A stretch of DNA of 64,000 bases, taken from Synergistaceae bacterium (lineage in GTDB: Bacteria > Synergistota > Synergistia > Synergistales > Aminobacteriaceae). The stretch's first letter is position 1. Every line of letters begins with the position of its first letter. This document shows positions 10,214-47,358 of the stretch, one piece after another. The notes under the pieces are model-generated. The model worked only from the letters and a program-made list of their open reading frames with translations. It was not told the origin of the DNA and did no database searches. Both the position numbers and the translations under genes were made by a program. The stretch spans positions 5,835 through 69,834 of the forward strand of contig JAFYBQ010000033.1 in the NCBI GenBank assembly GCA_017540085.1, written 5' to 3'.

Positions 10214-10951
10214 TCAGCCGGAATATACTTCAATCCCGCCCATGTCCCTGAACCCGTAAGCAGAATAGAACGGGACTCCCGCTGCTTCAGCCTGGAGGAC
10301 GATTCTTTTCCCGCCTGACAATCTGCGAATCTCGTCCATCATTGCCGAGGCGATTCCTTCCCGCCTCATCTCAGGGACAACCGAGAAATAGTAGACACCC
10401 GCAAATCCCGCGTCATCGTTCACCGTCAGGAACGACCCCGAATCCCAGCCATGAAGCACAGCGACATACAGCCCGAAATCCTCACAGCCCGCAAGATTCC
10501 ACGCAAACGCACAGAAATCCTCCGAGGGATTCTCACCGTCATAATCAAACCCGCGCCACGCACATTTTGCCCACCGCGCAGAGTCTTCACGGGACGTTAC
10601 AGCGGTGAAAGTTACGGAATCATTCCCGCGAATCAGGGCAGGGGAGTCAGAATCAAGAGTCATAGCCCTTATTTGTTCGGACTGAATGAGTCCTCCGTCA
10701 GAAAGAATCTCATTGCCCCCGTCAAAAACAGGCCACATGAAAGACTCGCCGCGCTCACGGAAAAATTCAGCCGCTTTCCTCACGGTCTCAACATCATTCA
10801 CAGAGCCGGGAAAACACACCCAGTTTTCAGCCTCCGTCCTTGTCGAAACACAGAAGCCCCCGGAATTTCCGAGAGTCAGAGTCTCATTTGACGGAATATC
10901 TTTCAGGCACTCCATCATGTATTTCATGTTGCGTAATGCGTCATCCATCAT
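10214..10951 (-). CDS. GNAT-family N-acetyltransferase with N-terminal extension
   Basis: C-terminal VVPEMRREGIASAMM...QAEAAGVPFYSAYGF is a GNAT acetyl-CoA (R/Q-x-x-G-x-A) region. Start refined to ATG 10951 (GGAGGA 9 nt upstream), sharing one base with the upstream stop (TGATG). The track ORF extends to 10975. Confidence 0.75.
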   Translation of the reverse strand: MMDDALRNMKYMMECLKDIPSNETLTLGNSGGFCVSTRTEAENWVCFPGSVNDVETVRKAAEFFRERGESFMWPVFDGGNEILSDGGLIQSEQIRAMTLDSDSPALIRGNDSVTFTAVTSREDSARWAKCAWRGFDYDGENPSEDFCAFAWNLAGCEDFGLYVAVLHGWDSGSFLTVNDDAGFAGVYYFSVVPEMRREGIASAMMDEIRRLSGGKRIVLQAEAAGVPFYSAYGFRDMGGIEVYSG

Positions 10952-13422
10952 CAGAAAACTTCCTCCAGTCCGCATGTCAGCATCAAATCTTTCACCGCCG
11001 GGATGATTTCGCCGTCAATTTTTTCGCGGTACGCTCCCGACTCGGAGTCACCATTCACATCTTCAGCCAGGGCGGATTTCAGGCGTTCGGCCATTTCTGC
11101 AATCTCATCATTTGTCCGGGTCATTCCGTCCGACTGCAATTCGAGAATTTTTGCGCGTGTGTTCTCCCTCTCGGCTTTGAGGTCTAAATCTTCCTGCGTA
11201 AGCTCGCGCAGTCTGTTCTGAAGGTCGCGCCGTTCGTCAGAAGTCAGACATGCCGCGGCGTAATCGTCCTCGTTCCTGAAGCCCAGCGCAAGAAGTCTCT
11301 TGTTGAAATTAATCTCGTGCCTCTGCAAATCTTCCCGGCCTTTAGCTGTCTCAGTCTCAAGCGTGTGAATTGCGGTCTGGATTCGCTCTAGTGCCTGTGA
11401 TTTTGCGTTCCTGTCCTCGCGGCGTTCATTGAGCTGTGAACGGAGCGACTCGACATCGGCATTCATGCGCGACATTTCGTCATCGGGCTTCCGTGAGGCA
11501 AACAATATTATTCTCTGCTGCTGGACTGAGTCCCGGTCGGCCTCTATAGCTTTGACTCTTCCGGCGGCTTCCTCGCGTTTTGCGCGGAGGGCCTCGCGCT
11601 CCTTCTTGAGGGCTGTCATTTTCGTGCCGGCTAATGTCATTTCGCGTTCGAGGTCATCACGTTTCTTTGAGCCTTCCTGCCAGTCATTGAGGCGTTTTTC
11701 GAGGGCTTCAACGACTTCTGCGGGGTTCTTGTCGGGGAGAGTCTTGTAGCCGTATGCTGAGACCTGCGAAATCAATTCACGTTTCAGGCTGGCTACAATT
11801 TCGGCCTGAGTCTTTGTCTCGGTGTCTAACTGCTCTTCCTCTGTGCGGGCTGTCTGAAGGGCGAATAATGCATCCTGATGGATTCGCGTAACTTCCCCGC
11901 GTGTCTCGCGAATCTTGCTGAGTTCGTCCTCGGCGGCTTTCATGTCGCGTTCGGCTGACTCTGCTGTGTCGGCGGCGTTTCGTGCTAACTGTAATGTGTC
12001 GCGTGTCCGCTGGCGTTCCCGGTCAAGCTCCTCAAACGGCGAAATTCCCGCGCTGATTTTGAGTTCCAGCAGTGAAACTGATGATGATATTTCCGCTGTA
12101 AGCTCGTTAATCCTCCGGCGTAATTCTGACTCGTCCCGGCCTACCGCTGTGCTTTCCTCGCTGAGTTTCCCGGCTCTTGTCTGCCTCGTCGTGAGAGCGT
12201 CGCGCAGTTCGGATAATGCTTTCTGTGTCTCCTGTAATTGTCTGTGCACTTCCTCCGGGTCAGGGATTGCCGCGCCTGATGTGTAGGGGTGAGTCATTGA
12301 GCCGCAAAGGGGACACGGCGCACCGTCCTGCAATAATTCCCGCACCGCGTCAAGATCTTCAATCCTACGCAATAATGCCGCACGTTTTTCGAGTCGTTCG
12401 GCCTCCATCTGTAACTCGTGAATCCTCCCGGACTGCTCTACGTCCCGAATGTTAAGAGTCCGTGTCTCCTGCTGGATTCGGAGTCTTATGTCCTGAAACT
12501 GTTTCAGCTTTTCTTCAAGACTCCTGACTTCCTGAAACTTTCGGTAAAGCTCGTCAAGGTCAGCAAGTTTCTTTATGCTCTTGTCGCAGACCTCGCGCCA
12601 TTCGGTTATGGACTTTCCTTTGAGCGTACCCTCGTAAAATGCCCGCGCCCTTGCGTAATTTTTCTCTGTTACGGCGTAACGGTGATTCACGTCTGAGAAC
12701 ATCGCGCTTCTGTCATTGAGGACGCTTTGAGCCTGCAACTTTCGCTGAATTGCTTTTGACCACGAGACTTTGAGCGAGGTATGTTTCTCTTCTGCCTGCT
12801 CATACATGGCAAAACATTTCTGTATACCTGAGAGTCCCGTCTGCAATTTCTCATCAATAGAATGCTGCTGAAGGAATTTCCGCGCCTCACGCAATGCCAC
12901 TTCTACGCGCTCTAGGGAAACTTGTTCGGACTCGGCTTTGGCGGAGCATTCGCGGTATTCTCTCTCGGAGTCTTCGTATTCTTTCCTGGCCTGAATTACT
13001 GCGTCAGACCTGTCTGTGATTTGAGCGTCAAGAGCCTTCACCCGCTGTACGAGATTGGCGAGCTTTGATTGTTCGGCGAGTTTGTCGCGGTATTCTGACT
13101 CTATGATGGTGAGTGCCTCTTCTGCGTTTTGCAGGGCTGTGCGCGACTCGGTAAGATCGTCCCTCAAAGAGTCCTGGCGGATTTTGTTTTTCCCGCGCTG
13201 TTCCCTCAAGTCCTTTATTGCTTCGTACTCCTCGCCAAGCTCAAGAGTTTTCCCGCCGCGTTCGAGTCTCTGTTTTGACGGCACAAATAACGCTGTCCGC
13301 CGTTCTAGGTCTGCCCGTTTCGCGTCAATGTCCCTCAGTTTTTCCTGCTGGTGCAATTCCTCCGCCCTGTGCTGTAATATCTTCCGTAATTCCTCGAACC
13401 CCTCAAGTAATTTTTCCGTCAA
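10951..13422 (-). CDS. 823-aa coiled-coil protein with central SbcC/Rad50-type CxxC zinc-hook motif and no ATPase head
   Basis: Highly charged E/K/R/L/Q-rich sequence throughout. QDGAPCPLCGSMTHPY at aa 366-380 (12283-12315). No GxxxxGK[ST], signature or Walker B motif seen. Starts 5 nt after the tilS stop. Confidence 0.7.
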   Translation of the reverse strand: MTEKLLEGFEELRKILQHRAEELHQQEKLRDIDAKRADLERRTALFVPSKQRLERGGKTLELGEEYEAIKDLREQRGKNKIRQDSLRDDLTESRTALQNAEEALTIIESEYRDKLAEQSKLANLVQRVKALDAQITDRSDAVIQARKEYEDSEREYRECSAKAESEQVSLERVEVALREARKFLQQHSIDEKLQTGLSGIQKCFAMYEQAEEKHTSLKVSWSKAIQRKLQAQSVLNDRSAMFSDVNHRYAVTEKNYARARAFYEGTLKGKSITEWREVCDKSIKKLADLDELYRKFQEVRSLEEKLKQFQDIRLRIQQETRTLNIRDVEQSGRIHELQMEAERLEKRAALLRRIEDLDAVRELLQDGAPCPLCGSMTHPYTSGAAIPDPEEVHRQLQETQKALSELRDALTTRQTRAGKLSEESTAVGRDESELRRRINELTAEISSSVSLLELKISAGISPFEELDRERQRTRDTLQLARNAADTAESAERDMKAAEDELSKIRETRGEVTRIHQDALFALQTARTEEEQLDTETKTQAEIVASLKRELISQVSAYGYKTLPDKNPAEVVEALEKRLNDWQEGSKKRDDLEREMTLAGTKMTALKKEREALRAKREEAAGRVKAIEADRDSVQQQRIILFASRKPDDEMSRMNADVESLRSQLNERREDRNAKSQALERIQTAIHTLETETAKGREDLQRHEINFNKRLLALGFRNEDDYAAACLTSDERRDLQNRLRELTQEDLDLKAERENTRAKILELQSDGMTRTNDEIAEMAERLKSALAEDVNGDSESGAYREKIDGEIIPAVKDLMLTCGLEEVF

Positions 13423-13427
13423 ACCTA

Positions 13428-14462
13428 TTATTCCCCCTCAAAATATATTTTCCCGTTCCTGCCTGAGACTGTCATATTCCCGCGCCACTGAAATGTGAAA
13501 TTTCCGCCCTTCAGGATTAATCCGGCAAGCTCGGCGCACCTTCTCCGGGATAAAGTCCTGAGTCCCAATTGCCTGCCCATGTCCCGAATCACAATCGATA
13601 TATCATCATGGCCGTATTCTTTGAGCCTCCTGCGGTCAAGAGTGTGCGAATCCTCCCGGCATGACGAAAGAATTTCCCGGCTCCGTTCGTCCTCATTGCC
13701 GCGTATCTTCCTCATGTCCTCGCCGAATGCCGCTAAATGTTCGACTGCTGACGAGTTTATACCGGACTCGATTTCAGGCAGTAACCGCAGGCGTATGAAG
13801 TTGCGCGTATATCTGTCATCATTGTTGGTAGAGTCCTCGCGCCACGAAAGCCCCCTAACCCGCAGAATGTCCCGGAGAAATTCCCGCCTCAGTCCCAGCA
13901 AAGGCCGATAGAACGTAACGCCCTGAGTCTGAGTCGCCTCTGTCATTCCGACAGCCCCCCGTATTCCAGTCCCCCGCAGAATGTTGAACAGCACGGTTTC
14001 TGCGAGGTCATCGCGGTTGTGTCCCAGCATTATTGATGATATTCCCATTTCCCGCGCAGTGTCGGCCAGCGCGTTAAGGCGGAGTCTTCTTGCTGACGTT
14101 TCGAGGGACTCGCCCTTCATTTTTTCTGACGGAACATCTACCCTCACCGCCCGGAAATTTGCGCCGAGTCTCTCCGCAAACATGGCCGTGAATTTTTCGT
14201 CCCCGTCCGACTCCTGTCCTCTTATGCCGTGATTGACGTGTACCGCTGTGATTTCTCCGCCGTAAAACTGTCTGAACATCCACAGGAGCGCAAGAGAGTC
14301 CCCGCCTCCCGAAACAGCAAGGGCAATATTCCTCCCGTTTTCAGGAAGCCACGACTGACGAGTCCCGGTCTCGCGGAAATATTTTCCCAGCGCGTAATCT
14401 GAAAGGTGAAAAGGAATCCCCTGCCTATTTTCCATTGCCGTAAAGCATTCTGTAGACTTCAA
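13428..14462 (-). CDS. tilS: tRNA(Ile)-lysidine synthetase
   Basis: LAVSGGGDSLALL PP-loop (SGGxDS), VNHGIRG, LGHNRDDLAETVLFN. Alternative start at 14435 (MENRQG). Confidence 0.88.
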   Translation of the reverse strand: MKSTECFTAMENRQGIPFHLSDYALGKYFRETGTRQSWLPENGRNIALAVSGGGDSLALLWMFRQFYGGEITAVHVNHGIRGQESDGDEKFTAMFAERLGANFRAVRVDVPSEKMKGESLETSARRLRLNALADTAREMGISSIMLGHNRDDLAETVLFNILRGTGIRGAVGMTEATQTQGVTFYRPLLGLRREFLRDILRVRGLSWREDSTNNDDRYTRNFIRLRLLPEIESGINSSAVEHLAAFGEDMRKIRGNEDERSREILSSCREDSHTLDRRRLKEYGHDDISIVIRDMGRQLGLRTLSRRRCAELAGLILKGGNFTFQWRGNMTVSGRNGKIYFEGE

Positions 14463-16386
14463 GATTTGCGCTTACCCTCTGAACGTAGCCGTTTGTCTCG
14501 CTGAACACAACAGCCTCAATCCATCGCGGCAAGTCAGGATTCCCGCCGGAGTTGCGGAGCCATTTCCGTGCGTTTCCTGAGCCTGCGTTGTATGCGGCCA
14601 TTGCGTATTCTTCCCGGCCTAAGTTCCGCTTCAGCCAGTTGAGGTGGGACGCTCCCAGCCGAATGCTGTCGCTTGGGTTGTAGAGGTCATAGCTTGCGAG
14701 TCCGGCCCGTTTTGCTTCCTCCCTTGCTGTGGCGGGCATGAACTGCATTAATCCTGCTGCCCCTGCCCAGCTTCTTGCGTCAGGCTTGAACGCGCTCTCC
14801 TGTCTCATTATCGCCCAGATAAAATTTGTCTCCGTGCCGTATTGTTTTGACGCTGAGTCAACGATTGCCCTGAACGGACGCGGGTATAGTGCCTCCAAAT
14901 CTTGACGGTACATTGTTGTGCTTGATGTCATGAGAGTCTCAAGCCGTCTTGCCTCGCTGTAGCTCTCCTCAAGCCCAAGCCAACGCGACAAATGCAAAGC
15001 CCGGTATAGCTCCCGCGTGCTTGCCTTTGGCCGTGAAAGTTTCAGGTATGCGTGATATATGTAGCCCCATTGCTCTAGCTCTGTCGGCTTCAGGGTCAAA
15101 TTCGGGTTCGTGCCGCTGATGATGTTGAGCTTCTGCCCCGTGATTAGCGCGTAAATCGTGAGGGGATATTTCCGCTTGAGTAGGGCTAATGTATTCGCGG
15201 CGGCCTGATTCTGTCCCGAAAGAGTCTGAGCCTGCGCGAGCCAGTAGAGAATACGCGCCCGCCTGTATTGATTCGTGTTCGGAGCGTCGCACTGTCGGAA
15301 TAATTTTGCGGCCTCAGCGTAATTCCTTGCGTCCATGTTCCGCCATGCCCTTGCCCATAATGTATTGAACGCGAATGTTGTACCCGGAAATGATTTCAGT
15401 ATTCGCGCCTCTAATGCGTCTCTTCTTGCGGTGTTCTTCCCGCTGAGATTCACGAGTGCCTGCAAAGCCCGCGCCTGAACATTTCCGCGCCTCTCGCGTG
15501 ATATTCGGTCTAAGACTTTCGCGCAGGAGTCGTGCATTCCTTTGTCTTTGGCGAGGTTAGCGATTCTTGTTACGGAGCTTGCCGCGTATGAATTTCCGCT
15601 GATGGCAAGACTGCCCCAGAGGTTTAGTGCCTCGTTGTTGTTCTTGAGGCGGGAATTTGCCCACGCACGGTAATATTGCGCCTTCCGTCCCTGTGCCCCT
15701 GTGAGAATTTCGCGGGCTGACTTGTTTTCGCCGATTGTGTGATAGTGGACTCCCAAGGCTGTCCGTATATTGTTGTTCGGTTTCGGGACTCTTGCCAGTA
15801 TTGCGGCGGCCTCTTTGTTTCCGGCCTGAAGCTCTAACAGCTGCAATGCGTGTGAATTGATGTCCCTGTTTCCCATCTGCTTGATGAGGCGCGAGAGAGT
15901 GTATATCTTCCGTTCGTCTGTCCCGGCGTGCTGAAGCATTCGTGTTAATCCCGTGAGGGCTGAACCCGGATTGCCCTGCGAGTCATTGATACGGTACTGA
16001 GCCATTGCCGCGTAATATTTCAGGTCAGAGGGTGCAGACTTGTAGAGGGAGTCGGCGAGGGCAAGAGCTTTCTGAGACTGTCCGAGATTCTCATAGCCCA
16101 GCAATAATATCATCTCCGCATACGGTCTCACGGACGCGGGAAAATTTTTTGACTGAGATTCAAGAATGCTCACGGCTTCCGGCCATCTCTCCTGGAATCT
16201 GTATGCGTTTGCCATGAGCGAATAATCGCGGGCGGATTTCTTCTTGATGGAGTTGAACTGCGATTCCATTTCCGGCCATGCCCGCTTCCAGAAGTAGTCC
16301 TCAAGTTTTGCGGCGGCGTTTGATTTCGGAGTAATCGAGAAGGTTATTATCAGTGTCAGAATTAACGCACGGAAAATTTTGCACAT
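14425..16386 (-). CDS. soluble lytic murein transglycosylase (Slt70-like: superhelical N-terminal region + SLT domain)
   Basis: Signal peptide, long helical-repeat region, then IMRQESAFKPDARSWAGAAGLMQFMPATA and AAYNAG SLT-domain motifs. Confidence 0.88.
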   Translation of the reverse strand: MCKIFRALILTLIITFSITPKSNAAAKLEDYFWKRAWPEMESQFNSIKKKSARDYSLMANAYRFQERWPEAVSILESQSKNFPASVRPYAEMILLLGYENLGQSQKALALADSLYKSAPSDLKYYAAMAQYRINDSQGNPGSALTGLTRMLQHAGTDERKIYTLSRLIKQMGNRDINSHALQLLELQAGNKEAAAILARVPKPNNNIRTALGVHYHTIGENKSAREILTGAQGRKAQYYRAWANSRLKNNNEALNLWGSLAISGNSYAASSVTRIANLAKDKGMHDSCAKVLDRISRERRGNVQARALQALVNLSGKNTARRDALEARILKSFPGTTFAFNTLWARAWRNMDARNYAEAAKLFRQCDAPNTNQYRRARILYWLAQAQTLSGQNQAAANTLALLKRKYPLTIYALITGQKLNIISGTNPNLTLKPTELEQWGYIYHAYLKLSRPKASTRELYRALHLSRWLGLEESYSEARRLETLMTSSTTMYRQDLEALYPRPFRAIVDSASKQYGTETNFIWAIMRQESAFKPDARSWAGAAGLMQFMPATAREEAKRAGLASYDLYNPSDSIRLGASHLNWLKRNLGREEYAMAAYNAGSGNARKWLRNSGGNPDLPRWIEAVVFSETNGYVQRVSANLEVYRMLYGNGK

Positions 16387-16490
16387 TATAAATATTTCCT
16401 GCTCCTTGCTGAATTATGATTGAAAATTTCTGTGTATTATATAATAACCGTTACAGACAAAGGATTTCACGCAAAGGAGACAAAATTTTT

Positions 16491-17769: not shown

Positions 17770-18537
17770 ATGCACACATGCACATGGTATATTGCCGGGA
17801 ATGTCAGCGATGTATTGGCGCAGGTCATAAAGGACATGGCAAACGCCCTGCGGAGTCATTCGCGGAATATCGACATTGACGTTATCAGCGCGAAAGAGTC
17901 CTACAAGGCCGGATTCGAGCGTGTCAGAAACATTTTCAGGAGGCGCGAAATCTGGCACTTGTTCGGGCGCGCTCCGTTGTGGTGGAAAATTGTCCAGCTA
18001 CATTCGCGGACTGTTCACACATTGCTTGAGAGTAATTACTGGGCGGGACATCCGTCAAGATTCTTCACAGAGGGCGCGAAATCGGGCGAGGCTGTAATCT
18101 TCCCTGTGTTTGACCCTCTGAGCAGTTACACTGAGGACGGGAAGAGGGCTGTATTTGTCCGGGACGGCAGAAAAATTCCTGAAGGGGATTACGAGGTAGC
18201 CGACATCACCGAGAAGCTATTACGGCCTGAAGCGTTAAGCGGGATATACATCACCAATGACACAGGCCCCCGCGAGGCCATGAGGGCGGGAATACTCACA
18301 ATGCGGGGAGTCTGCGTAGCGTCTCAGAAATCCGGGTATCTCGACGAAATTTTAGGGCCTGACGGGTATTTTATGATTCGTGATGATGATGATATTCCCC
18401 GGATAATTCAGCAGGGACTCGGCAGCAGGGGCAGGCATACGGCCATGACAGCGCGTCATTTCCTCAATTCCCGGCGGTCTCATGAACGCTGTGCAAGCTC
18501 AATCGTAAGCCTTTACAGGAAAATAATATCCCAATGA
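17770..18537 (+). CDS. hypothetical protein, possibly a short/degenerate GT1/GT4-like glycosyltransferase
   Basis: 255 aa. REAMRAGILTMRGVCVAS resembles the E-x-A-x-G-x-P-V-V-A-S region of GT4 enzymes. Sits between tyrS and an LPS-type acyltransferase. Weak call. Confidence 0.3.
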   Translation: MHTCTWYIAGNVSDVLAQVIKDMANALRSHSRNIDIDVISAKESYKAGFERVRNIFRRREIWHLFGRAPLWWKIVQLHSRTVHTLLESNYWAGHPSRFFTEGAKSGEAVIFPVFDPLSSYTEDGKRAVFVRDGRKIPEGDYEVADITEKLLRPEALSGIYITNDTGPREAMRAGILTMRGVCVASQKSGYLDEILGPDGYFMIRDDDDIPRIIQQGLGSRGRHTAMTARHFLNSRRSHERCASSIVSLYRKIISQ

Positions 18538-30824: not shown

Positions 30825-32435
30825 ATGAAAAATGTGATGAAAGTTGTACTGTTTATTTCTGTCGGAGGGCTTGTGGCCTTTAACATTTTCGACAGCCTTT
30901 TGCATAAGGTTGCGGACAATATTTTTGTCGGAGGAACTGTCATCATACACAATCACAGCGATAATGACAGCAAAATTTCAGGCGTGATTCATTCTGTCGA
31001 CATACAGCAGAATATCCCCGCAACAATTTCTGAGTCGCCGCCAAAAACTAACATTCCCGAAAATATACCGCCCGTTACCGTCAATCAAGCCTCAAAAGAC
31101 ACAAAGCCAGCCGTTGTTCCGCAAGCGTCGCAAGACATAAAGCCCGTTATCGTTCAGACAATCTCAAATGACACATTAGCCGCAAAAACTTTCAGCAAAG
31201 ATTCGAGTCCTCAAGAAAAATTTTACAGGACAGAATTAATCTATCAGTTCATAATCAAACACTCAGATATTTTCACACGCAGAAAAAATGAATCGCCCGC
31301 AAAAATTTCAGAGGACATGAAAACGTTTGAGCCTCAGAAAATTTCGCATGACATTCACGCCGTGACTCTCAGCGATGACTCAGCACCTGAAAATTTCACG
31401 TTCACAGGATGGCACAAGACCCGCAGTAGCGTAGATATTCCGCAAGCATCGCAAGACAAACAGCCATTTATTGTTCAGGAAATCTCATATGACATAAAGC
31501 CCGCTGTCATTCAGCAAGAACCAAATGACACACTGCCAGCAGAAACGTTCAGCAAAGATTCGAGTCCTCAAGAAAAAATTGACAGGACAGAATTAATCTA
31601 TCAGTTCATAATCAAACACTCAGATATTTTCACACGCAGGAAAAATGAATCGTCTGCAAAAATTTCAGAGGACATGAAAACGTTTGAGCCTCAGAAAATT
31701 TCGCATGACATTCACGCCGTGACTCTCAGCGATGACTCAGCACCCGAAAATTTCACGTTCACAGGATGGCTTAAGACTCGCAGCAGCGTAGACACTCATT
31801 CATTCACGCTGACTCATTCATGCGCGGCAAATATATCGTTCACACCTTCTGACGGCGACAAAGCGTATTACGTTCTGACAGTGAGAGGGGACTCCGGCCA
31901 TGTCATTACGCGCAAGACGATCGACAGCGAGAACCTTCACACAGGAACGGGGAATATATATCTGCGTCCGGGAAATTACACGGTGAACATTGAGCGGGGC
32001 TATTCATGGAGCGGGAAGCCCTACAGAATCACAGTCAGCACTTCACGCGTCAGCAACGCCGAGCAGGAGAGCAACAATTCTCCGCAGACAGCAAATGTTA
32101 TCCCGCTGAATAAAAATGTCAGTGCCTCGTCAGGAACGCATAATGACACGGATTATTTCACGTTCACGCTTGAGAAGCCGATGATGATTCGCCCTTGCCT
32201 TGAGTTTCGCGAAGTCATGAACGGAAGAAGGGTATACGACAAGAAATTTTACGGGCTTACAGTTGATGACAGAAATTTTGTCTTCAGGGGGGACGCAACG
32301 CCGTCGAGGAAGATCAAGCCATTTGTTTTGGACGCGGGGAAATATATAATATCAATATCCCGTTTAGAGCCTGAAGAATTAGAGCTTGGACTCCATGAAT
32401 ACACATTAAGAGTCGACGCTCAAGAATTAATGTAG
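30825..32435 (+). CDS. N-terminally membrane-anchored repeat protein with two C-terminal PPC-like (pre-peptidase C-terminal-like) beta domains
   Basis: 536 aa. TM VVLFISVGGLVAFNIF. QASxDxKPxxVQ short repeats and a 119-aa duplication. C-terminus NNSPQTANVIPLNKNVSASSGTHNDTDYFTFTL resembles the PPC-domain pattern. No clear SD. Confidence 0.6.
   Translation: MKNVMKVVLFISVGGLVAFNIFDSLLHKVADNIFVGGTVIIHNHSDNDSKISGVIHSVDIQQNIPATISESPPKTNIPENIPPVTVNQASKDTKPAVVPQASQDIKPVIVQTISNDTLAAKTFSKDSSPQEKFYRTELIYQFIIKHSDIFTRRKNESPAKISEDMKTFEPQKISHDIHAVTLSDDSAPENFTFTGWHKTRSSVDIPQASQDKQPFIVQEISYDIKPAVIQQEPNDTLPAETFSKDSSPQEKIDRTELIYQFIIKHSDIFTRRKNESSAKISEDMKTFEPQKISHDIHAVTLSDDSAPENFTFTGWLKTRSSVDTHSFTLTHSCAANISFTPSDGDKAYYVLTVRGDSGHVITRKTIDSENLHTGTGNIYLRPGNYTVNIERGYSWSGKPYRITVSTSRVSNAEQESNNSPQTANVIPLNKNVSASSGTHNDTDYFTFTLEKPMMIRPCLEFREVMNGRRVYDKKFYGLTVDDRNFVFRGDATPSRKIKPFVLDAGKYIISISRLEPEELELGLHEYTLRVDAQELM
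31079..31792 (+). repeat. 2 x 357-bp in-frame tandem duplication
   Basis: Cores 31191-31435 and 31548-31792 differ at about ten positions by manual alignment. The first ~112 nt of each unit are more diverged. Confidence 0.9.
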
Positions 32436-37779: not shown

Positions 37780-39876
37780 CTACGGCAAAGGATAATGATC
37801 CCATATCGGCACACCCAGGAAAAATCCCGTCTTCAGTTCCTCAGAGCCGTACATTATTGCCAGCTTCATGTCGATTATGTTGTTCGGGAAATTCACGGCA
37901 AGCCCTACTTCCCACGGAGCGTCTATCTTTCCCCAGCCCTTGTCCATAGCATAGCCCCAGCTCGCGAAAATCTCACCCGCCAAGACTCCGACCGCCGTTC
38001 GGTTAAGTATCTTCCTGAAAGCTAGGTTAGCCCAGAACATTCGCTCGGCCTCAATGGGATTCGCCGCCACAGAGTAAAGCTCCTCAGCCGCCCCCAAGTA
38101 CACCGCGTGCGCTCTCCTGTTCATGTCGCCCTCAGCAAAACCAAGACGCAGATACGTCCTCCAAAGGCTCGAAACATCAAGCGGCTTGAAGTAAGTCAGC
38201 CTGTAATTTATCTCGTCAAAGCTCGGCCACCAGGCATTGACCTTCCACGCATAGCCCCTCGTAGGGTCTGAAGGCATGTCAAGAGTGTCATATTCCGCAA
38301 AGAACGTAAGACCGCCAGATTCCGTGCCGTCTTTTGTTGAAATTGCGTTCCCGTCAACATGCTCATACGCATATCCGAATCCCATATTGACATCGCCCAG
38401 CGTGAAAAGCCGCGCAATTCCCGTCGCGTATCTGTCCCAGTCCCGGAGGTGGTCATCTTCCCCGGCAGGCCGCCAGTTTTGTGCGCTGAATGTGAACTGC
38501 CATCCGTCCATAGGCTGAGGGGCTGTCTGATATGTCAGGTCAAATCCCCACTGCTCTCCGATTTTCGCCACGCCCACAAGTGAGTCATACTCCGACAAAA
38601 TTCCGTTCAGCTCGCCTTTCAGGTAAAGCCATCTGTTTGGGTGAAGGTTTGTCGTGTAACCTGAAATCCCCGCTTTAATCTCAGGGGACCTCCTCACGTC
38701 AATACGCACAAGGACATCTCCCGAAGCCGTCCGCCCTAACTGGTAGTCCGCCATGTCAATACCGACTGATTCCGAAAGCCTGTCGAGGCCGTCAGCTATC
38801 TTCTTGTCGTCCACTGGCTTGCCTATCCATCGCAGCATTCTTTTCCGCACAAGCTCGGCCATTTTCGGCGGAAGTCCGTGAACTTCAACATCACCGACAA
38901 TATTATTCTGCTTACTTTCTTCCTTCTTCAGCGTGAAAAGCTCCGGGCCTGTCTCGGAGAGTGCTTTTATCTCGTCAAGATGTTTCATTGCCTCTTCAGT
39001 GCCAAGCGCGATTACTATTTCAGGGTCTACATTGTCAAGCGTACCCATCCCGGAAACATCCGGCTTCAGCAGTATATCCGCCGCTAATGCTTCCTCGTCT
39101 GTCGTACGCCTCATCAGAATCGTCAATGACTGATTCAGCACATCCATGTATGAATTTACTTTGCTTTCCATCGCCCCGGAAATGTCGACTGCTACAATCG
39201 GTACGCCGGGGAATAATTCTTTGGCGGTGTAAACAGGAAGGTTTGAGACTATTCCGCCGTCAACAAGAAGATGATCATCAATCTTCCACGGCTCGAACAC
39301 CATCGGAATCGACATTGATGCCCTCATTGCCGCCGCTAAGTTGCCTTCTTTGAGGACTACTTTCTCCCCGGTGTTTATGTCCGTCGCAACTGCCGCATAC
39401 GGTATAGGGAGGTTGTGAAAATCCGTCTCGGTAACATGCTTCATGAGCTGGGAAAAATACCTGAACAGCTTATCCCCCGTTAAGAGTCCTTTAGGCCCTA
39501 CCTGCCCTTCCTGCTTCTTGTAGGTCAGAAGGCTGACGGTGTTTGTCTTTGCGCGTCTGTCGTTGCCCGTGAAGACGAACATAGGCCCGGTGTTTTCGCT
39601 GAGGAGGCTGGGAAGGTCTAACTCCTTCAAGATTCTGTGCATGTCCCTTGTTGAGTACCCGCTCGCCCTCAAAGCCCCCATCAAAGCACCCATGCTCGTG
39701 CCGACAATCCCGACAATCTCGACTCCGTTTAGCTCTAACGTCTCCATGACTCCCAAGTGAGCGAATCCCTTTGTCCCTCCGCCCGAAAGAACGAGAACGA
39801 CTCCCGCGTCCCCCTGAATCGGAGTCATTGCTATAATCACCGCGGCCATGAATGCGAATATACAGCGTCTGAACAT
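37780..39876 (-). CDS. patatin-like phospholipase fused to a POTRA/Omp85-type outer-membrane beta-barrel (PlpD-like)
   Basis: Signal peptide. GGGTKGFAHLG oxyanion motif, GTSMG (GxSxG), VDGG (Asp of dyad). C-terminal ~330 aa rich in alternating aromatic/Gly beta-strand patterns. Confidence 0.82.
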   Translation of the reverse strand: MFRRCIFAFMAAVIIAMTPIQGDAGVVLVLSGGGTKGFAHLGVMETLELNGVEIVGIVGTSMGALMGALRASGYSTRDMHRILKELDLPSLLSENTGPMFVFTGNDRRAKTNTVSLLTYKKQEGQVGPKGLLTGDKLFRYFSQLMKHVTETDFHNLPIPYAAVATDINTGEKVVLKEGNLAAAMRASMSIPMVFEPWKIDDHLLVDGGIVSNLPVYTAKELFPGVPIVAVDISGAMESKVNSYMDVLNQSLTILMRRTTDEEALAADILLKPDVSGMGTLDNVDPEIVIALGTEEAMKHLDEIKALSETGPELFTLKKEESKQNNIVGDVEVHGLPPKMAELVRKRMLRWIGKPVDDKKIADGLDRLSESVGIDMADYQLGRTASGDVLVRIDVRRSPEIKAGISGYTTNLHPNRWLYLKGELNGILSEYDSLVGVAKIGEQWGFDLTYQTAPQPMDGWQFTFSAQNWRPAGEDDHLRDWDRYATGIARLFTLGDVNMGFGYAYEHVDGNAISTKDGTESGGLTFFAEYDTLDMPSDPTRGYAWKVNAWWPSFDEINYRLTYFKPLDVSSLWRTYLRLGFAEGDMNRRAHAVYLGAAEELYSVAANPIEAERMFWANLAFRKILNRTAVGVLAGEIFASWGYAMDKGWGKIDAPWEVGLAVNFPNNIIDMKLAIMYGSEELKTGFFLGVPIWDHYPLP

Positions 39877-43953: not shown

Positions 43954-46900
43954 ATGTATTCGCTTTCAGAGTTATTCAGGAACTCAACGCATGATGACTC
44001 GGCCTTCACACCCGGAACAGTTCACGCGGTCGAGTCCATGATTTACACGAAAGAACAGCGCGGGAAAATTATCCCCTTCATCAAGTGCATAATCCGCAAA
44101 AAGGAAATACGCCTGAACCCGGAAGAAGCCGTCAGACAGCTATACATTTACAGGCTGATTCATGAGTATGGATATGACCCGGAAAATATCAGGCTTGAAC
44201 ACGGAATAAATTTCGGGCGTGAAATCAAGCGCGCTGACATTGTGATATTCGAGAAGGATCACCCGAACTCGGAATATATCATTGTCGAGGTCAAGAAGCC
44301 AAACTCACGCGACGGAAAAGCACAGCTCAAATCATACTGCAATGCTTCAGGCGCAATAATGGGAGTCTGGACTAACGGGCAGGATTTCGCATACTATCAC
44401 CGCAAAGACCCAAATTATTTCGAGAACATACCCGACATACCCAAAGCAAAGCAGAAACTCCGCGACATTCTCCGGGAACGCTGGACAATCTCAGACCTTG
44501 AAGCAAAAGACAGGCTCAGGGACGGCCATAAATCATTGACCGGGCTGATTCAGGAAATGGAAGACGAGGTATTAGCCAACGCCGGAGTCGATGTTTTCGA
44601 GGAAGTGTTCAAGCTGATATACACGAAACTTTTTGACGAAATGCAAAGCGGGCGGGACAAGTCGCGTATTCTTGAGTTCAGGAATTACGGCGACACAGAC
44701 TCTGACCTCAAAGCAAACATTCAGGCACTCTTCAAGCAGGCTATGCGGAAATGGCCGGGAGTCTTCAACGACAACGACACAATATCATTGACCCCCTCGC
44801 ATTTGTCCGTTTGTGTCTCGGCTCTGCAAAGCGTCAAGCTCTTCAACTCTAATCTTGATGTCATTGATGACGCATTCGAGTACCTCATGAGCAAGTCAAG
44901 CAAGGGCGAGAAAGGGCAGTTTTTCACCCCGCGTTATGTTATCGATATGTGCGTGAGAATGCTCAATCCCAAAAAGAACGAGTCAATGATTGACACCGCG
45001 GCAGGCTCATGCGGATTCCCCGTTCACACAATATTTCACGTGTGGAAAAATATTCTTGCCGAAAAGGGAATCGAACAGAGTCATTTGTTCACAGCGGAAG
45101 AAAAGCCCCCGGAGTGTCAAGAGTACGTGAAGGATAAAGTTTTTGCCATTGACTTTGACGAAAAAGCCGTGAGAGTCGCTCGTACGCTTAACCTTATAGC
45201 CGGAGACGGGCGGACAAATGTACTTCACCTTAACACGCTGGATTACGGACGCTGGGAGGAGACAATAAAGCCGCGGGCATGGCAGAAAATCTACAGTGAA
45301 GGCTGGCTCAGGTTTACGGATTTCTGCGGCACTGAAGAGGATTACGGCAATTTTGCGTTTGATATTGTCATGGCTAACCCTCCTTTTGCGGGCGACATCA
45401 AAGAGGGCAAAATCATATCCCGCTATGAACTCGCAAGAGACGCAAAAGGCAAATACGCGCAGAGAATCGGACGGGATATATTATTCATTGAGCGCAATAT
45501 TCATTTCCTGAAACCCGGCGGAAGAATGGCAATAGTACTCCCGCAGGGACGCTTCAACAATTCGAGCGACAAATACATTCGGAGCTTCATTGCGAGGGAG
45601 TGCAGGATTCTGGCGGTAATCGGGCTTCATGAAAACGTCTTCAAGCCTCACACAGGCACAAAGACTTCTGTGCTGTTCGTGCAGAAATGGGATGATGATT
45701 TATGCCCGCACCGTGAAGATTACCCGGTGTTTTTCGCGACAATGAGGAAGCCGGGGAAGGACAATTCCGGCGGGAAAATTTACGTAAGGGACTCAGACGG
45801 GCATATACTGAGGGACGCGCATAATCACCCGGTTGTTGATCATGATCTGTATAATCACGAGGGCTTGACTCAGGACGGAATAGCGGAGGCGTTCATAGAG
45901 TTTGCGAAAAGGGAGGGATTAAGTTTTTTCGGTGATGCCCGCTTCTCTGAGGAACGTTACGGGGAATTAGTGAGCGGGCTTGAAGTGAGTGAAGTGATGT
46001 TGAGCAGGCTTGAGAATTATTTTACGCTTGGTGCAGAATATTACGCAAAAGGCTATGTGTATGCGGCTTGCAAAGTTCAGGCTTGCAGGAAGTCAGAAAC
46101 TCTTGGCAATATGTCTCAAATAATTACGGACGGCGATCACGATTCACCAGAATATTTTGATGATGGCATTCCGTATCTTTTGAGTGAGACTGTACAGACG
46201 GGATATATAGACAAAAGCAAAATACGCTACATAACGCTGGAAAAACATGAAACCTTGCGAAAATCTGCAACACGTCCGCGAGATGTATTAGTTACAAAAA
46301 CGGGTGTATATTTCGGAAAAAGTGCTGTTACGCCTGACGATATACAAGAAGCTAATATGAGTTCACATGTTGCTATGATACGGCTTAAAGATGAATATAA
46401 TCCCTATTTTGTCTCGGCGTTTCTGAATTGTAATTACGGCTATTCACAGTTACGCAGGAGGGGAGTAAAGGCCACGCGCCCCGAAATAGCATTACTTGAA
46501 TTTGACGATATACGAGTCCCGAAAATGTCCGACGAATTTGACTCGCTCATAGAATCAATAACCCGTCAGGCCATGACCGCAATAGCCGACTCCGAATCCC
46601 TCTACGCCCGCGCACAATCAATCCTCAATGACGCAATACACTTCACCCCCTCGGCGCATTCAGACTCAAATATCACTGCCGTATCATTCTCGCAGGTCTT
46701 CAGCGCAGGACGTATGGACGCGGAATACTTCATGCCCAAATATGACGAACTCTTAGCGCACCTTGAGACCCTCCCGGCAAAACGTCTCGGCGAAATCGTA
46801 ACTATCACGAAATCCATCGAACCCGGCAGCGAATGTTACAGCACAGAAGGAATACCCTTTATCCGTGTCAGCGACATCACAGAGACAGGCATAACACCTC

Positions 46901-47358
46901 CGGCAATACGAATCCCTTGGACATCTGAGAATGAGAAACTTTACCCGAAGAAAGATACTATCTTGTTGTCGAAGGACGGCACTATAGGAATTGCGTACAA
47001 AGTTGACTCTGATATGGAGGCTGTAACATCGGGGGCGTTGCTTCATTTGCGTGTTACTGACTCTGAAGTCATGCCGGATTATCTTGCGCTTGTGCTTAAT
47101 TCAGAGGCTGTGCGCTTGCAGGCCGAACGCGATTCCAATGGAGCAATCATAAAACACTGGAAGCCCGGCGACATTGCCCGCACCGTTATTCCAATATTCG
47201 ACTCACAGACTCAGCAGTCAATCTCCGAACATGTCCGCGACTCTTTCGCCCTCAGAAAAGAATCCGAACGCCTCATAGCCCTTGCAGTAAAATCCGTTGA
47301 ACTCGCTGTAGAACATGACGAAAACGCAGCAATGAATCTCATAACGCAGTCAGAATAA
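43954..47358 (+). CDS. single-chain restriction-modification-like fusion: HsdR_N-type PD-(D/E)xK domain + gamma-class N6-adenine methyltransferase + two HsdS-like target recognition domains
   Basis: 1134 aa. ADIVIFE...IIVEVKK (D..ExK), DTAAGSCGF (AdoMet motif I), VMANPPFAG (NPPF motif IV). The C-terminal ~450 aa form two TRD-like blocks, each followed by a helical spacer. Confidence 0.8.
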   Translation: MYSLSELFRNSTHDDSAFTPGTVHAVESMIYTKEQRGKIIPFIKCIIRKKEIRLNPEEAVRQLYIYRLIHEYGYDPENIRLEHGINFGREIKRADIVIFEKDHPNSEYIIVEVKKPNSRDGKAQLKSYCNASGAIMGVWTNGQDFAYYHRKDPNYFENIPDIPKAKQKLRDILRERWTISDLEAKDRLRDGHKSLTGLIQEMEDEVLANAGVDVFEEVFKLIYTKLFDEMQSGRDKSRILEFRNYGDTDSDLKANIQALFKQAMRKWPGVFNDNDTISLTPSHLSVCVSALQSVKLFNSNLDVIDDAFEYLMSKSSKGEKGQFFTPRYVIDMCVRMLNPKKNESMIDTAAGSCGFPVHTIFHVWKNILAEKGIEQSHLFTAEEKPPECQEYVKDKVFAIDFDEKAVRVARTLNLIAGDGRTNVLHLNTLDYGRWEETIKPRAWQKIYSEGWLRFTDFCGTEEDYGNFAFDIVMANPPFAGDIKEGKIISRYELARDAKGKYAQRIGRDILFIERNIHFLKPGGRMAIVLPQGRFNNSSDKYIRSFIARECRILAVIGLHENVFKPHTGTKTSVLFVQKWDDDLCPHREDYPVFFATMRKPGKDNSGGKIYVRDSDGHILRDAHNHPVVDHDLYNHEGLTQDGIAEAFIEFAKREGLSFFGDARFSEERYGELVSGLEVSEVMLSRLENYFTLGAEYYAKGYVYAACKVQACRKSETLGNMSQIITDGDHDSPEYFDDGIPYLLSETVQTGYIDKSKIRYITLEKHETLRKSATRPRDVLVTKTGVYFGKSAVTPDDIQEANMSSHVAMIRLKDEYNPYFVSAFLNCNYGYSQLRRRGVKATRPEIALLEFDDIRVPKMSDEFDSLIESITRQAMTAIADSESLYARAQSILNDAIHFTPSAHSDSNITAVSFSQVFSAGRMDAEYFMPKYDELLAHLETLPAKRLGEIVTITKSIEPGSECYSTEGIPFIRVSDITETGITPPAIRIPWTSENEKLYPKKDTILLSKDGTIGIAYKVDSDMEAVTSGALLHLRVTDSEVMPDYLALVLNSEAVRLQAERDSNGAIIKHWKPGDIARTVIPIFDSQTQQSISEHVRDSFALRKESERLIALAVKSVELAVEHDENAAMNLITQSE

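Follow-up and report, generated by a model that had tools for sequence, protein, structure and literature searches.

The gene considered here lies in a 64,000-nucleotide (nt) stretch of contig JAFYBQ010000033.1 from a Synergistaceae bacterium (assembly GCA_017540085.1), called the window below, and is the third of four genes in a reverse-strand train, slt-tilS-X-GNAT. X is our short name for the open reading frame (ORF) at 10951-13422(-), and labels of the form L### and P#### denote loci and proteins, respectively. The slt gene overlaps tilS and is preceded by a promoter-like site, and a promoter and terminator scan inside the operon gave no signal above background. X begins with a TTG codon 5 nt after the tilS stop (13428-13430), behind a purine-rich, Shine-Dalgarno-like sequence, GAGGGGGAA. 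At the other end, its TGA stop (10953-10951) and the ATG (10951-10949) of a gene for a Gcn5-related N-acetyltransferase (GNAT) have one A in common (TGATG), and the Shine-Dalgarno sequence of the GNAT gene lies within X (Table 1). Since homologous GNATs are 245-249 amino acids (aa) long, this ATG and not the one at 10975 is the true GNAT start. The analyses described here make it very probable that X is a functional derivative of the SbcC coiled-coil protein that has lost its ATPase heads.

The residues E, L, R, A, K and D make up 59% of the X protein, which has a net charge of -22 and carries a zinc-hook motif in its middle. At the position aligned to this hook in a mixed profile (alignment A5), Escherichia coli SbcC (PDB 6S6V) carries GQPCPLCGSTSHP. 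In alignments A1 and A5, the CxxC..HPY pattern (CPLCGSxxHPY) does not vary between canonical relatives and those with vestigial heads or none, which argues that the hook is not there by chance. No Walker A, signature or Walker B motif was found in X with regular expressions. A Pfam search of X returned no domain, only a sub-threshold DUF6877 match: neither AAA_23, AAA_29 or SMC_N for an N-terminal lobe (Walker A GxxGxGK[ST], Q-loop) nor SbcC_Walker_B for a C-terminal lobe (LSGGE signature, Walker B, D-loop, H-loop). Weak NCBIfam matches to structural maintenance of chromosomes (SMC), SbcC and Rad50 models are confined to the coil and hook region. In the window, tblastn with an SbcD query from Synergistaceae and with canonical head lobes gave no match.

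These results agree with an earlier sequence-only reading of the window. The 823-aa coiled-coil ORF it described is supported by the ORF list, the composition and an all-helical structure model, and its hook at 12283-12315 translates as CPLCGSMTHPY and resembles that of E. coli SbcC as it had said. Coordinates and sequence confirm the 5-nt spacing from the tilS stop and the TGATG overlap with an internal GGAGGA, and tblastn confirms the absence of sbcD or mre11 from the window. The same reading had noted the missing Walker A, signature and Walker B motifs, and had allowed that ABC-ATPase head motifs might have been overlooked or that the CxxC might not be conserved among homologs; profile, regular-expression and Pfam searches detect no such head motifs, and the CxxC is invariant.

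Table 1. Coordinates of the features discussed (positions in the window unless a locus label is given)
Feature	Position	Strand	Basis or remark
X: head-less SbcC-derived coiled-coil/zinc-hook protein, 823 aa	10951..13422	-	ORF, AlphaFold2, Foldseek, profile, dN/dS
GGAGGA Shine-Dalgarno of GNAT gene, within X	10961..10966	-	9 nt 5' of ATG at 10951
Zinc-hook motif CPLCGSMTHPY (C370, C373, H378)	12283..12315	-	residues 370-380; translation, invariant in A1 and A5
Full hook motif QDGAPCPLCGSMTHPY	12283..12330	-	
Non-helical "knuckle" near arm base (aa 44-73, ALFVPSKQRLERGGKTLELGEEYEAIKDLR)	13204..13293	-	nearly invariant in A1
C-terminal conserved helix and tail (IIPAVKDLMLTCGLEEVF), remnant of first helix of lost C lobe	10954..11007	-	translation, A1
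Tandem-GNAT acetyltransferase, 245 aa, translationally coupled to X	10214..10951	-	Pfam, AlphaFold2, Foldseek
GNAT motif A, RREGIA (R/Q-x-x-G-x-G/A, acetyl-CoA pyrophosphate binding)	10349..10366	-	translation, A4
C-terminal end of GNAT	10214..10240	-	
tilS (PP-loop tRNA(Ile)-lysidine synthetase), directly upstream of X	13428..14462	-	Pfam ATP_bind_3, E 2.8e-46
slt (TPR and SLT lytic transglycosylase), first gene of train	14425..16386	-	Pfam SLT, E 1.7e-31
Promoter-like site before slt	16470..16441	-	
Dead-head SbcC locus (uvrA, SbcC, GNAT)	L053:6073-13720		
Vestigial-head gene with extended open frame	L044:8555-12775		
Head-less-2 protein, 806 aa, Synergistales bacterium MS499-57	L050:9887-12307		
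Third head-less protein, P0133, 754 aa	L060:6001-8265		
GT2 glycosyltransferase, ~317 aa	L035:12415-13374		overlaps X or within 14 nt
GT2 glycosyltransferase	L038:12476-13432		as above
GT2 glycosyltransferase	L046:12456-13406		as above
~160-aa ORF	L009:11718-12200		
~160-aa ORF	L052:2797-3276		
~160-aa ORF (orf172)	L050:12291-12809		
~160-aa ORF	L056		
~160-aa ORF	L059		
~255-aa ORF after tyrS	17770..18537	+	
~255-aa ORF after tyrS	L001:945-1718		
~255-aa ORF after tyrS	L003:1341-2114		
~255-aa ORF after tyrS	L004:2855-3646		
536-aa ORF	30825..32435	+	no Pfam match
1134-aa restriction-modification fusion	43954..47358	+	HSDR_N_2, N6_Mtase/Eco57I, Methylase_S
698-aa patatin-like phospholipase	37780..39876	-	

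The origin of X is apparent from profile searches. A profile built from 31 head-less proteins aligns with canonical SbcC along the full arm, confirming the SbcC/Rad50-type identity that had been proposed from the hook. The next-best matches, P0121 and P0123-P0125 (1126-1172 aa; 750-935 bits), are covered over the whole arm and have about 200 additional residues at each end compared with X, with no Pfam head domain. They are followed by P0129 (1231 aa; 375 bits, query 25-791 against residues 260-1026), and the head-less family profile matches hundreds of proteins of ~1225 aa at E 1e-50 to 1e-27. P0129 and its kin carry AAA_23, AAA_29 and SbcC_Walker_B, are named exonuclease SbcC [Synergistaceae bacterium], and are encoded directly downstream of sbcD with ruvCAB nearby. 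Among PDB sequences, the X sequence and the head-less-only profile A1 found no match; profile A5, in which canonical members are included, aligns with E. coli SbcC 6S6V, hook included. X starts at about residue 235 of canonical P0129, past the N lobe, and ends ~15 residues into the first C-lobe helix, its tail aligning with canonical KLHDLIGSADG where the C lobe begins. Both ends are conserved: knuckle residues F46, L53, L60 and E61 are invariant even in comparison with canonical SbcC, and in A1 a nearly invariant C-terminal peptide, L.L.CGLEEVF, with invariant L813, C817 and G818, follows a poorly conserved, indel-rich linker. The alignments indicate that X descends from SbcC, from a subfamily of ~1230 aa that is still linked to sbcD in other Synergistaceae. 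Since both ATPase lobes and the SbcD partnership are missing, we class X as an SbcC-derived protein and not as an SbcC.

The predicted structure also resembles the arms of SMC-type proteins. An AlphaFold2 (AF2) model of X built from the 31-sequence alignment is helical throughout save for short breaks, with a predicted local distance difference test score (pLDDT) of 81 and a predicted template modelling score (pTM) of 0.31. The breaks, at residues 45-56, 267-271, 365-388 (the hook), 452-461, 556-567, 582-595, 641-645 and 713-717, sit at roughly mirror distances either side of the hook, and the first of them, of low pLDDT, coincides with the knuckle. Moreover, coil interruptions such as G558, P563, P567, P646, F715 and E718 are invariant from canonical SbcC through the head-less forms, so that the joints of the SbcC arm are preserved in X. 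Of the eight long helices, four show a significant hydrophobic repeat of 3.5 residues (z 4-10), and Foldseek matches the model with probability 1.0 to the arms of MukB, JetC, condensin, Smc5/6 and Rad50. DSSP and Foldseek summaries of the model point to a long intramolecular antiparallel coiled coil, as found in SbcC and Rad50.

A protein database holds 176 relatives, and the names among the matches listed are only "hypothetical protein [Synergistaceae bacterium]"; the 120 relatives listed are ~735-843 aa long, except for one 583-aa fragment, and 58-100% identical. When each GTDB species was represented by a single genome, a scan yielded 47 loci. The head-less form occurs in about 33 GTDB species from independent studies, in metagenome-assembled genomes (MAGs) from the guts of goat, deer, reindeer and sheep that carry the label Synergistaceae, Synergistales or "uncultured Fretibacterium". 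In these species the X ORF is uninterrupted at ~810-840 aa, and head-less loci agree in where it starts and stops and in its translational coupling. In comparison with relatives at synonymous divergence (dS) of about 1-2, the ratio of nonsynonymous to synonymous substitution (dN/dS) is 0.07-0.09 for X, 0.08-0.12 for slt, 0.10-0.19 for tilS and 0.16-0.27 for the GNAT gene. By this measure, X, a coiled coil without any enzyme domain, is under strong purifying selection and is constrained over its whole length at least as tightly as the essential tRNA enzyme TilS.

Relatives that still have heads exist in other lineages, a point on which the sequence-only reading had called for a homolog search, and they form a graded degeneration series: intact heads with sbcD, dead heads with GNAT and without sbcD, vestigial heads with GNAT, and head-less forms. 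In a motif census made by aligned column, the canonical loci (L009, L049, L051, L055 and L052) have Walker A GPTGAGKT, Q-loop LLAQG, signature LSGGE, Walker B FLDEGF and H-loop ISHV, with the C-lobe motifs alone readable in L052, a fragment without the N lobe. In the same order, the semi-dead L054 has GPPGAGKT, LLAQS, LSEGEN, FLDDGF and VSNA, and the dead L053 (P0324) has GPAGAGKS, W in place of Q, LSGGE, FLDGGF (E to G) and VSSA (H to S). The L053 protein is an SbcC of 1262 aa in which Walker A and the signature are still present and the N lobe contains a low-complexity, Asn-rich insertion; its gene starts 4 nt beyond the end of uvrA and is followed 9 nt later by GNAT, and sbcD is absent. Among vestigial forms (L043, L044, L010, L007, L011 and L041), Walker A is deleted, the Q-loop mostly lost, signature, Walker B and H-loop lost and the C-terminus truncated; the vestigial fragments L048 and L058 have lost all five motifs. 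Finally, all five are absent from the head-less window family, L050, L056 and P0133. The vestigial proteins retain only MRILQV..LALYG vestiges, and their heads evolve at dN/dS 0.24-0.56 vs 0.16-0.33 in their own coils, suggesting constraint that is relaxed but not neutral. By tblastn, sbcD is found beside L009, L049, L051 and L055 and not in the window or at any head-less or vestigial-head locus, and canonical and vestigial head-lobe queries find nothing in the 10-kb flanks of any head-less locus.

Two vestigial loci have peculiarities of their own. In L044 the open frame extends ~230 codons 5' of the conserved (M/I)RILQ start; this Arg/Pro/Gly-rich extension is probably spurious, reflecting GC-rich DNA rather than an added domain. 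L048 and L058 lie on two contigs of assembly JAAYOR01 (Fretibacterium sp. AS21ysBPME_7) and hold near-identical partial vestigial-head X copies, with GNAT following L058; they reflect a mixture of strains in the bin or else a genuine duplication.

A neighbour-joining tree of 745 coil columns (200 bootstraps) places the head-less proteins in more than one position. The Synergistaceae sequences are monophyletic (100%) and split into two clades. Clade I (98%) contains the canonical sbcD-linked genes, L052, L054, the dead-head L053 and the head-less L050 and L056, which we call head-less-2. Clade II (100%) contains the vestigial-head proteins, with the head-less family of the window (head-less-1; 100%) nested within them and grouped with L007, L011 and L041 (100%). 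Because head-less-1 and head-less-2 fall in separate clades, heads were deleted at least twice independently. L050 shares 58% identity with L053 and 27% with the window protein. It is genuinely head-less; the gene that precedes it by 137 nt is a divergent hypA-like one, and no similarity to a head was detected. The third head-less protein, P0133, also belongs to Clade I and is 43% identical to L050 and ~40% to canonical SbcC; L050 and P0133 are 27-28% identical to the window protein. The scan patterns recovered every class, yet among about 45 assemblies not one contains canonical and GNAT-linked forms together, and this non-co-occurrence fits vertical replacement rather than a resident paralog, as far as incomplete MAGs and a search that covered this SbcC subfamily can tell.

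The product of the gene coupled to X is an acetyltransferase of tandem architecture. Acetyltransf_7 and Acetyltransf_10 score above Pfam cut-offs in its C-terminal half, with Acetyltransf_13 at E 0.026. The N-terminal extension noted by the sequence-only reading is present, but the AF2 model (pLDDT 93.9) and Foldseek identify it as a degenerate first GNAT domain of a tandem fold; the closest structures are 4IUS, VipF, 3FRM, MAB_4324 and MshD (E 4e-12, TM-score 0.55-0.68, identity 12-16%). R196, R197, A201 and Y229 are invariant and G199 nearly so (alignment A4), and the acetyl-CoA site is predicted to be intact.

Orthologs of this GNAT, 30-75% identical over their full length, stand beside X-type genes in about six contexts. 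GNAT directly follows and overlaps, or lies within 15 nt of, the X-type gene in the slt-tilS context of the head-less-1 loci, with flgE (L007), with cobU (L010), with mreB-flgG following (L011) and with uvrA ahead of the dead-head gene (L053). A ~160-aa ORF stands between the two genes in L052, which encodes an SbcC with an intact C head, and in the head-less-2 locus L050. Since GNAT also accompanies head-bearing forms of SbcC, the SbcC-GNAT association is older than head loss. No GNAT lies within 10 kb of the canonical sbcD-sbcC loci L009, L049, L051 and L055. Thus the pairing that the earlier reading saw in one operon is kept beyond it, including beside vestigial, dead and probably intact heads, but it is not universal, being absent in four head-less species.

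Two features of the GNAT loci are recorded here as observations. Orthologous GNATs end in ...S-x-x-(D/E)-(V/I)-F (alignments A3 and A4), and the window GNAT stops five residues earlier, in ..EVYSG, an end shared by a 96%-identical relative; head-less X itself ends in ..CGLEEVF, an acidic-V-F C-terminus similar to the tail of the orthologous GNATs. The conserved ~160-aa ORF found between sbcC-type genes and GNAT in Clade I has no Pfam match and carries a motif, G(F)GNEYREDD(A/G)AGV, that may resemble one in hydrogenase maturation endopeptidases. A GNAT toxin-antitoxin system of the TacT/AtaT type was considered and set aside on size and architecture, given a conserved 823-aa coiled-coil protein upstream in place of a small antitoxin and a 245-aa tandem enzyme.

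The overall best explanation, to which we assign a probability of roughly 0.6, is that X is a zinc-hook scaffold or tether, exapted and free of ATPase, and works with the acetyltransferase. The suggestion of the earlier reading that X is a Zn-dimerising scaffold recruited for a non-repair role is consistent with these data. Judged by its missing motifs, X is predicted to be unable to bind or hydrolyse ATP, and the staged loss of heads in its relatives suggests that the arm probably fulfils an independent function. The X chain would fold back into a rod of ~50 nm (~365 paired residues at ~0.15 nm each), and two rods would be joined through one Zn2+ held by four hook cysteines, as in Rad50/SbcC. 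The base of the rod, made of the N-terminal knuckle and the C-terminal CGLEEVF peptide, may serve as a docking site that is no longer for ATP, DNA or SbcD; the partner docked there would most probably be the co-translated tandem GNAT, as client or modifier. Such an assembly would be ATP-independent and zinc-dimerised and would either position the acetyltransferase or be acetylated by it. Because X and GNAT (net charge -17) are both acidic, direct nucleic-acid binding seems unlikely. The narrower proposal that X works as scaffold or substrate for this particular GNAT is tentative. On a similarly cautious footing, an arm and hook function free of ATPase and nuclease, involving the linked tandem GNAT, could already have existed in canonical SbcC and become the sole function in Synergistaceae by head inactivation, erosion and at least two deletions; the link to the GNAT would then be akin to that between Eco1 and cohesin, or the arm would be a zinc-dimerised tether for placing the enzyme.

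Several findings weigh against this explanation. In 4 of ~30 head-less loci with a readable downstream region, the GNAT beside X is missing or replaced: L032 has neither GNAT nor a family 2 glycosyltransferase (GT2) downstream of X, and in the L035/L038/L046 subclade a GT2 occupies the GNAT position. P0133 likewise has no GNAT within 6 kb. These loci indicate that X is able to persist without an adjacent GNAT. In the same genomes GNAT is 34-75% identical vs 58-87% for X, which is unusual for tight obligate partners, and the acidic character of both proteins offers no argument for a mutual interface. Moreover, the antiparallel hairpin is read from DSSP and Foldseek summaries of a model with a pTM of 0.31, and, given incomplete MAGs, the same genome may also encode a canonical sbcCD from a different subfamily.

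These exceptions give some weight to the view that X is an autonomous structural or cytoskeletal coiled coil, for example of the envelope or cell division, whose neighbours are merely operon-mates and whose GNAT modifies a small molecule or sugar. X is conserved above every neighbour, it can lose GNAT or see it exchanged for GT2, the slt-tilS-X order is invariant in the head-less-1 clade (in every locus with upstream sequence), and some of the structures closest to the GNAT are N-acetyltransferases of sugars and thiols (MshD, glucosamine N-acetyltransferase). However, the X-GNAT pair is found together in at least five unrelated contexts, with frames overlapping or nearly abutting and reaching back to head-bearing SbcC, which is hard to explain without a functional tie, and the vestigial-head relatives are not tied to slt or envelope genes. 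We therefore regard an autonomous role as rather unlikely. The pseudogene alternative is weaker still: X has no catalytic parts and its database name is only "hypothetical protein", but a decaying sbcC or an assembly or annotation artefact is refuted by an intact ORF in about 33 GTDB species, by dN/dS of 0.07-0.09 and by conserved start, stop and translational coupling, and the same evidence answers the earlier concern that the locus might be a fragment of a disrupted full-length sbcC.

The remaining alternatives place the missing heads elsewhere in the cell. X might heterodimerise through its hook with a full-length SbcC/Rad50-like protein, and so regulate SbcCD or cap it in a dominant-negative manner. 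The hook is indeed the most conserved element and of the same type as canonical SbcC hooks, and hooks in Rad50/SbcC are established to pair two chains through a shared Zn. Such a role is nonetheless improbable given that no assembly holds both head-less or vestigial and canonical subfamily members, that neither sbcD nor a head lobe is present in the window or in any 10-kb head-less flank, and that the arm is conserved over its whole length beyond the hook, more than capping would demand. Even less probable, to the point of being hard to sustain, is a split gene whose head lobes are supplied in trans and rebuild an SbcC-like ATPase on the arm. X keeps the arm base and ~15 residues of the first C-lobe helix, and the genomes are incomplete MAGs, but neither the window nor the head-less flanks gave a tblastn match to canonical or vestigial lobes, and a 136-aa ORF upstream of P0133 was rejected as a head remnant on examination. 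Moreover, the attached heads of the closest relatives are already without any catalytic motif, indicating that the ATPase was dead before deletion.

The preferred explanation, a zinc-hook scaffold working with an acetyltransferase, can be set against known systems. With SbcC of SbcCD/Mre11-Rad50 (E. coli SbcC, PDB 6S6V), X shares common descent, an arm aligned over its full length with interruptions kept, and a hook of the PCPLCGSxxHP type, but it is without both ATPase lobes and an adjacent sbcD, so that ATP-driven DNA clamping and nuclease activation are impossible for the X polypeptide alone. The Rad50 zinc hook is described in one report as a constitutive dimerisation module (PMC6969161). 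It places a CxxC at the apex of an antiparallel coiled coil, as in X, and by analogy Zn-mediated pairing of arms would be expected for X; the Rad50 hook, however, serves an ATPase and nuclease machine, whereas X has nothing at the other end. RloC, an anticodon nuclease with a Rad50-like zinc-hook/coiled-coil insert, keeps its ABC ATPase (PMC2610378, PMC3458546). It exemplifies the use of a Rad50-type hook and coil in a role other than DNA-break repair, as proposed for X, but RloC has a working ABC ATPase, a nuclease domain and a short coil, and X has neither ATPase nor catalytic domain.

The partner of X has its own parallels. It shares a two-domain fold with tandem GNATs (4IUS, Legionella VipF 7WX5, 3FRM, MAB_4324 7Q3A and the mycothiol synthase MshD 1OZP) at 12-16% identity; of its two domains, the N-terminal one has degenerated, and the C-terminal one retains motif A intact together with the conserved Tyr. 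We know of no such tandem GNAT that is paired with an SMC-like protein. Eco1/ESCO is a GNAT-fold acetyltransferase that acts on cohesin SMC3 at lysines on the ATPase head. It provides a precedent for a GNAT modifying an SMC-like partner, by analogy only, since the target head is absent in X, and its homology to the window GNAT is limited to the generic GNAT motif (Acetyltransf_13). Lamassu LmuB and Wadjet JetC resemble X by a weak coil profile match (LmuB, E 2.5e-7) and by Foldseek arm likeness (JetC), a generic coiled-coil similarity; both have ATPase heads and partners (LmuA/LmuC, JetABD), none of which occurs at the X locus. A defence system of either kind was accordingly rejected, PADLOC giving weak LmuB and JetC coil matches for X and none for GNAT. 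A phage-borne X was also rejected, as IMG/VR viral contigs contain only distant SbcC at 23-26% identity.

X is thus a real, conserved and previously undescribed variant of the SbcC kind whose evolutionary path is unusually clear. A full-text literature search found no description of a natural head-less Rad50/SbcC or of an SbcC-acetyltransferase (GNAT) pair. To our knowledge, every described Rad50/SbcC activity (DNA-end clamping, Mre11/SbcD activation and tethering) depends on the ATPase head, and the arm and hook are regarded as accessories whose purpose is debated. The Synergistaceae forms provide a natural separation-of-function series for an SMC-family protein, from dead heads through vestigial heads to arm and hook alone, and suggest that SbcC arms partner a tandem-GNAT acetyltransferase, a pairing that has not been studied so far. 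Vestigial-head forms are present in MAGs labelled Fretibacterium, a genus with cultured human-oral members, and their function may therefore be experimentally approachable.

The wider neighbourhood holds further genes that we record briefly (Table 1). Divergent from the slt-tilS-X operon, and always after tyrS, is a ~255-aa ORF of no Pfam family, which in the window, L001 and L004 is then followed by a lipid A acyltransferase-family gene. Elsewhere in the window are a 536-aa ORF, a single-chain restriction-modification fusion that is type IIG/I-like, and a patatin-like phospholipase whose long C-terminal part is uncharacterised.

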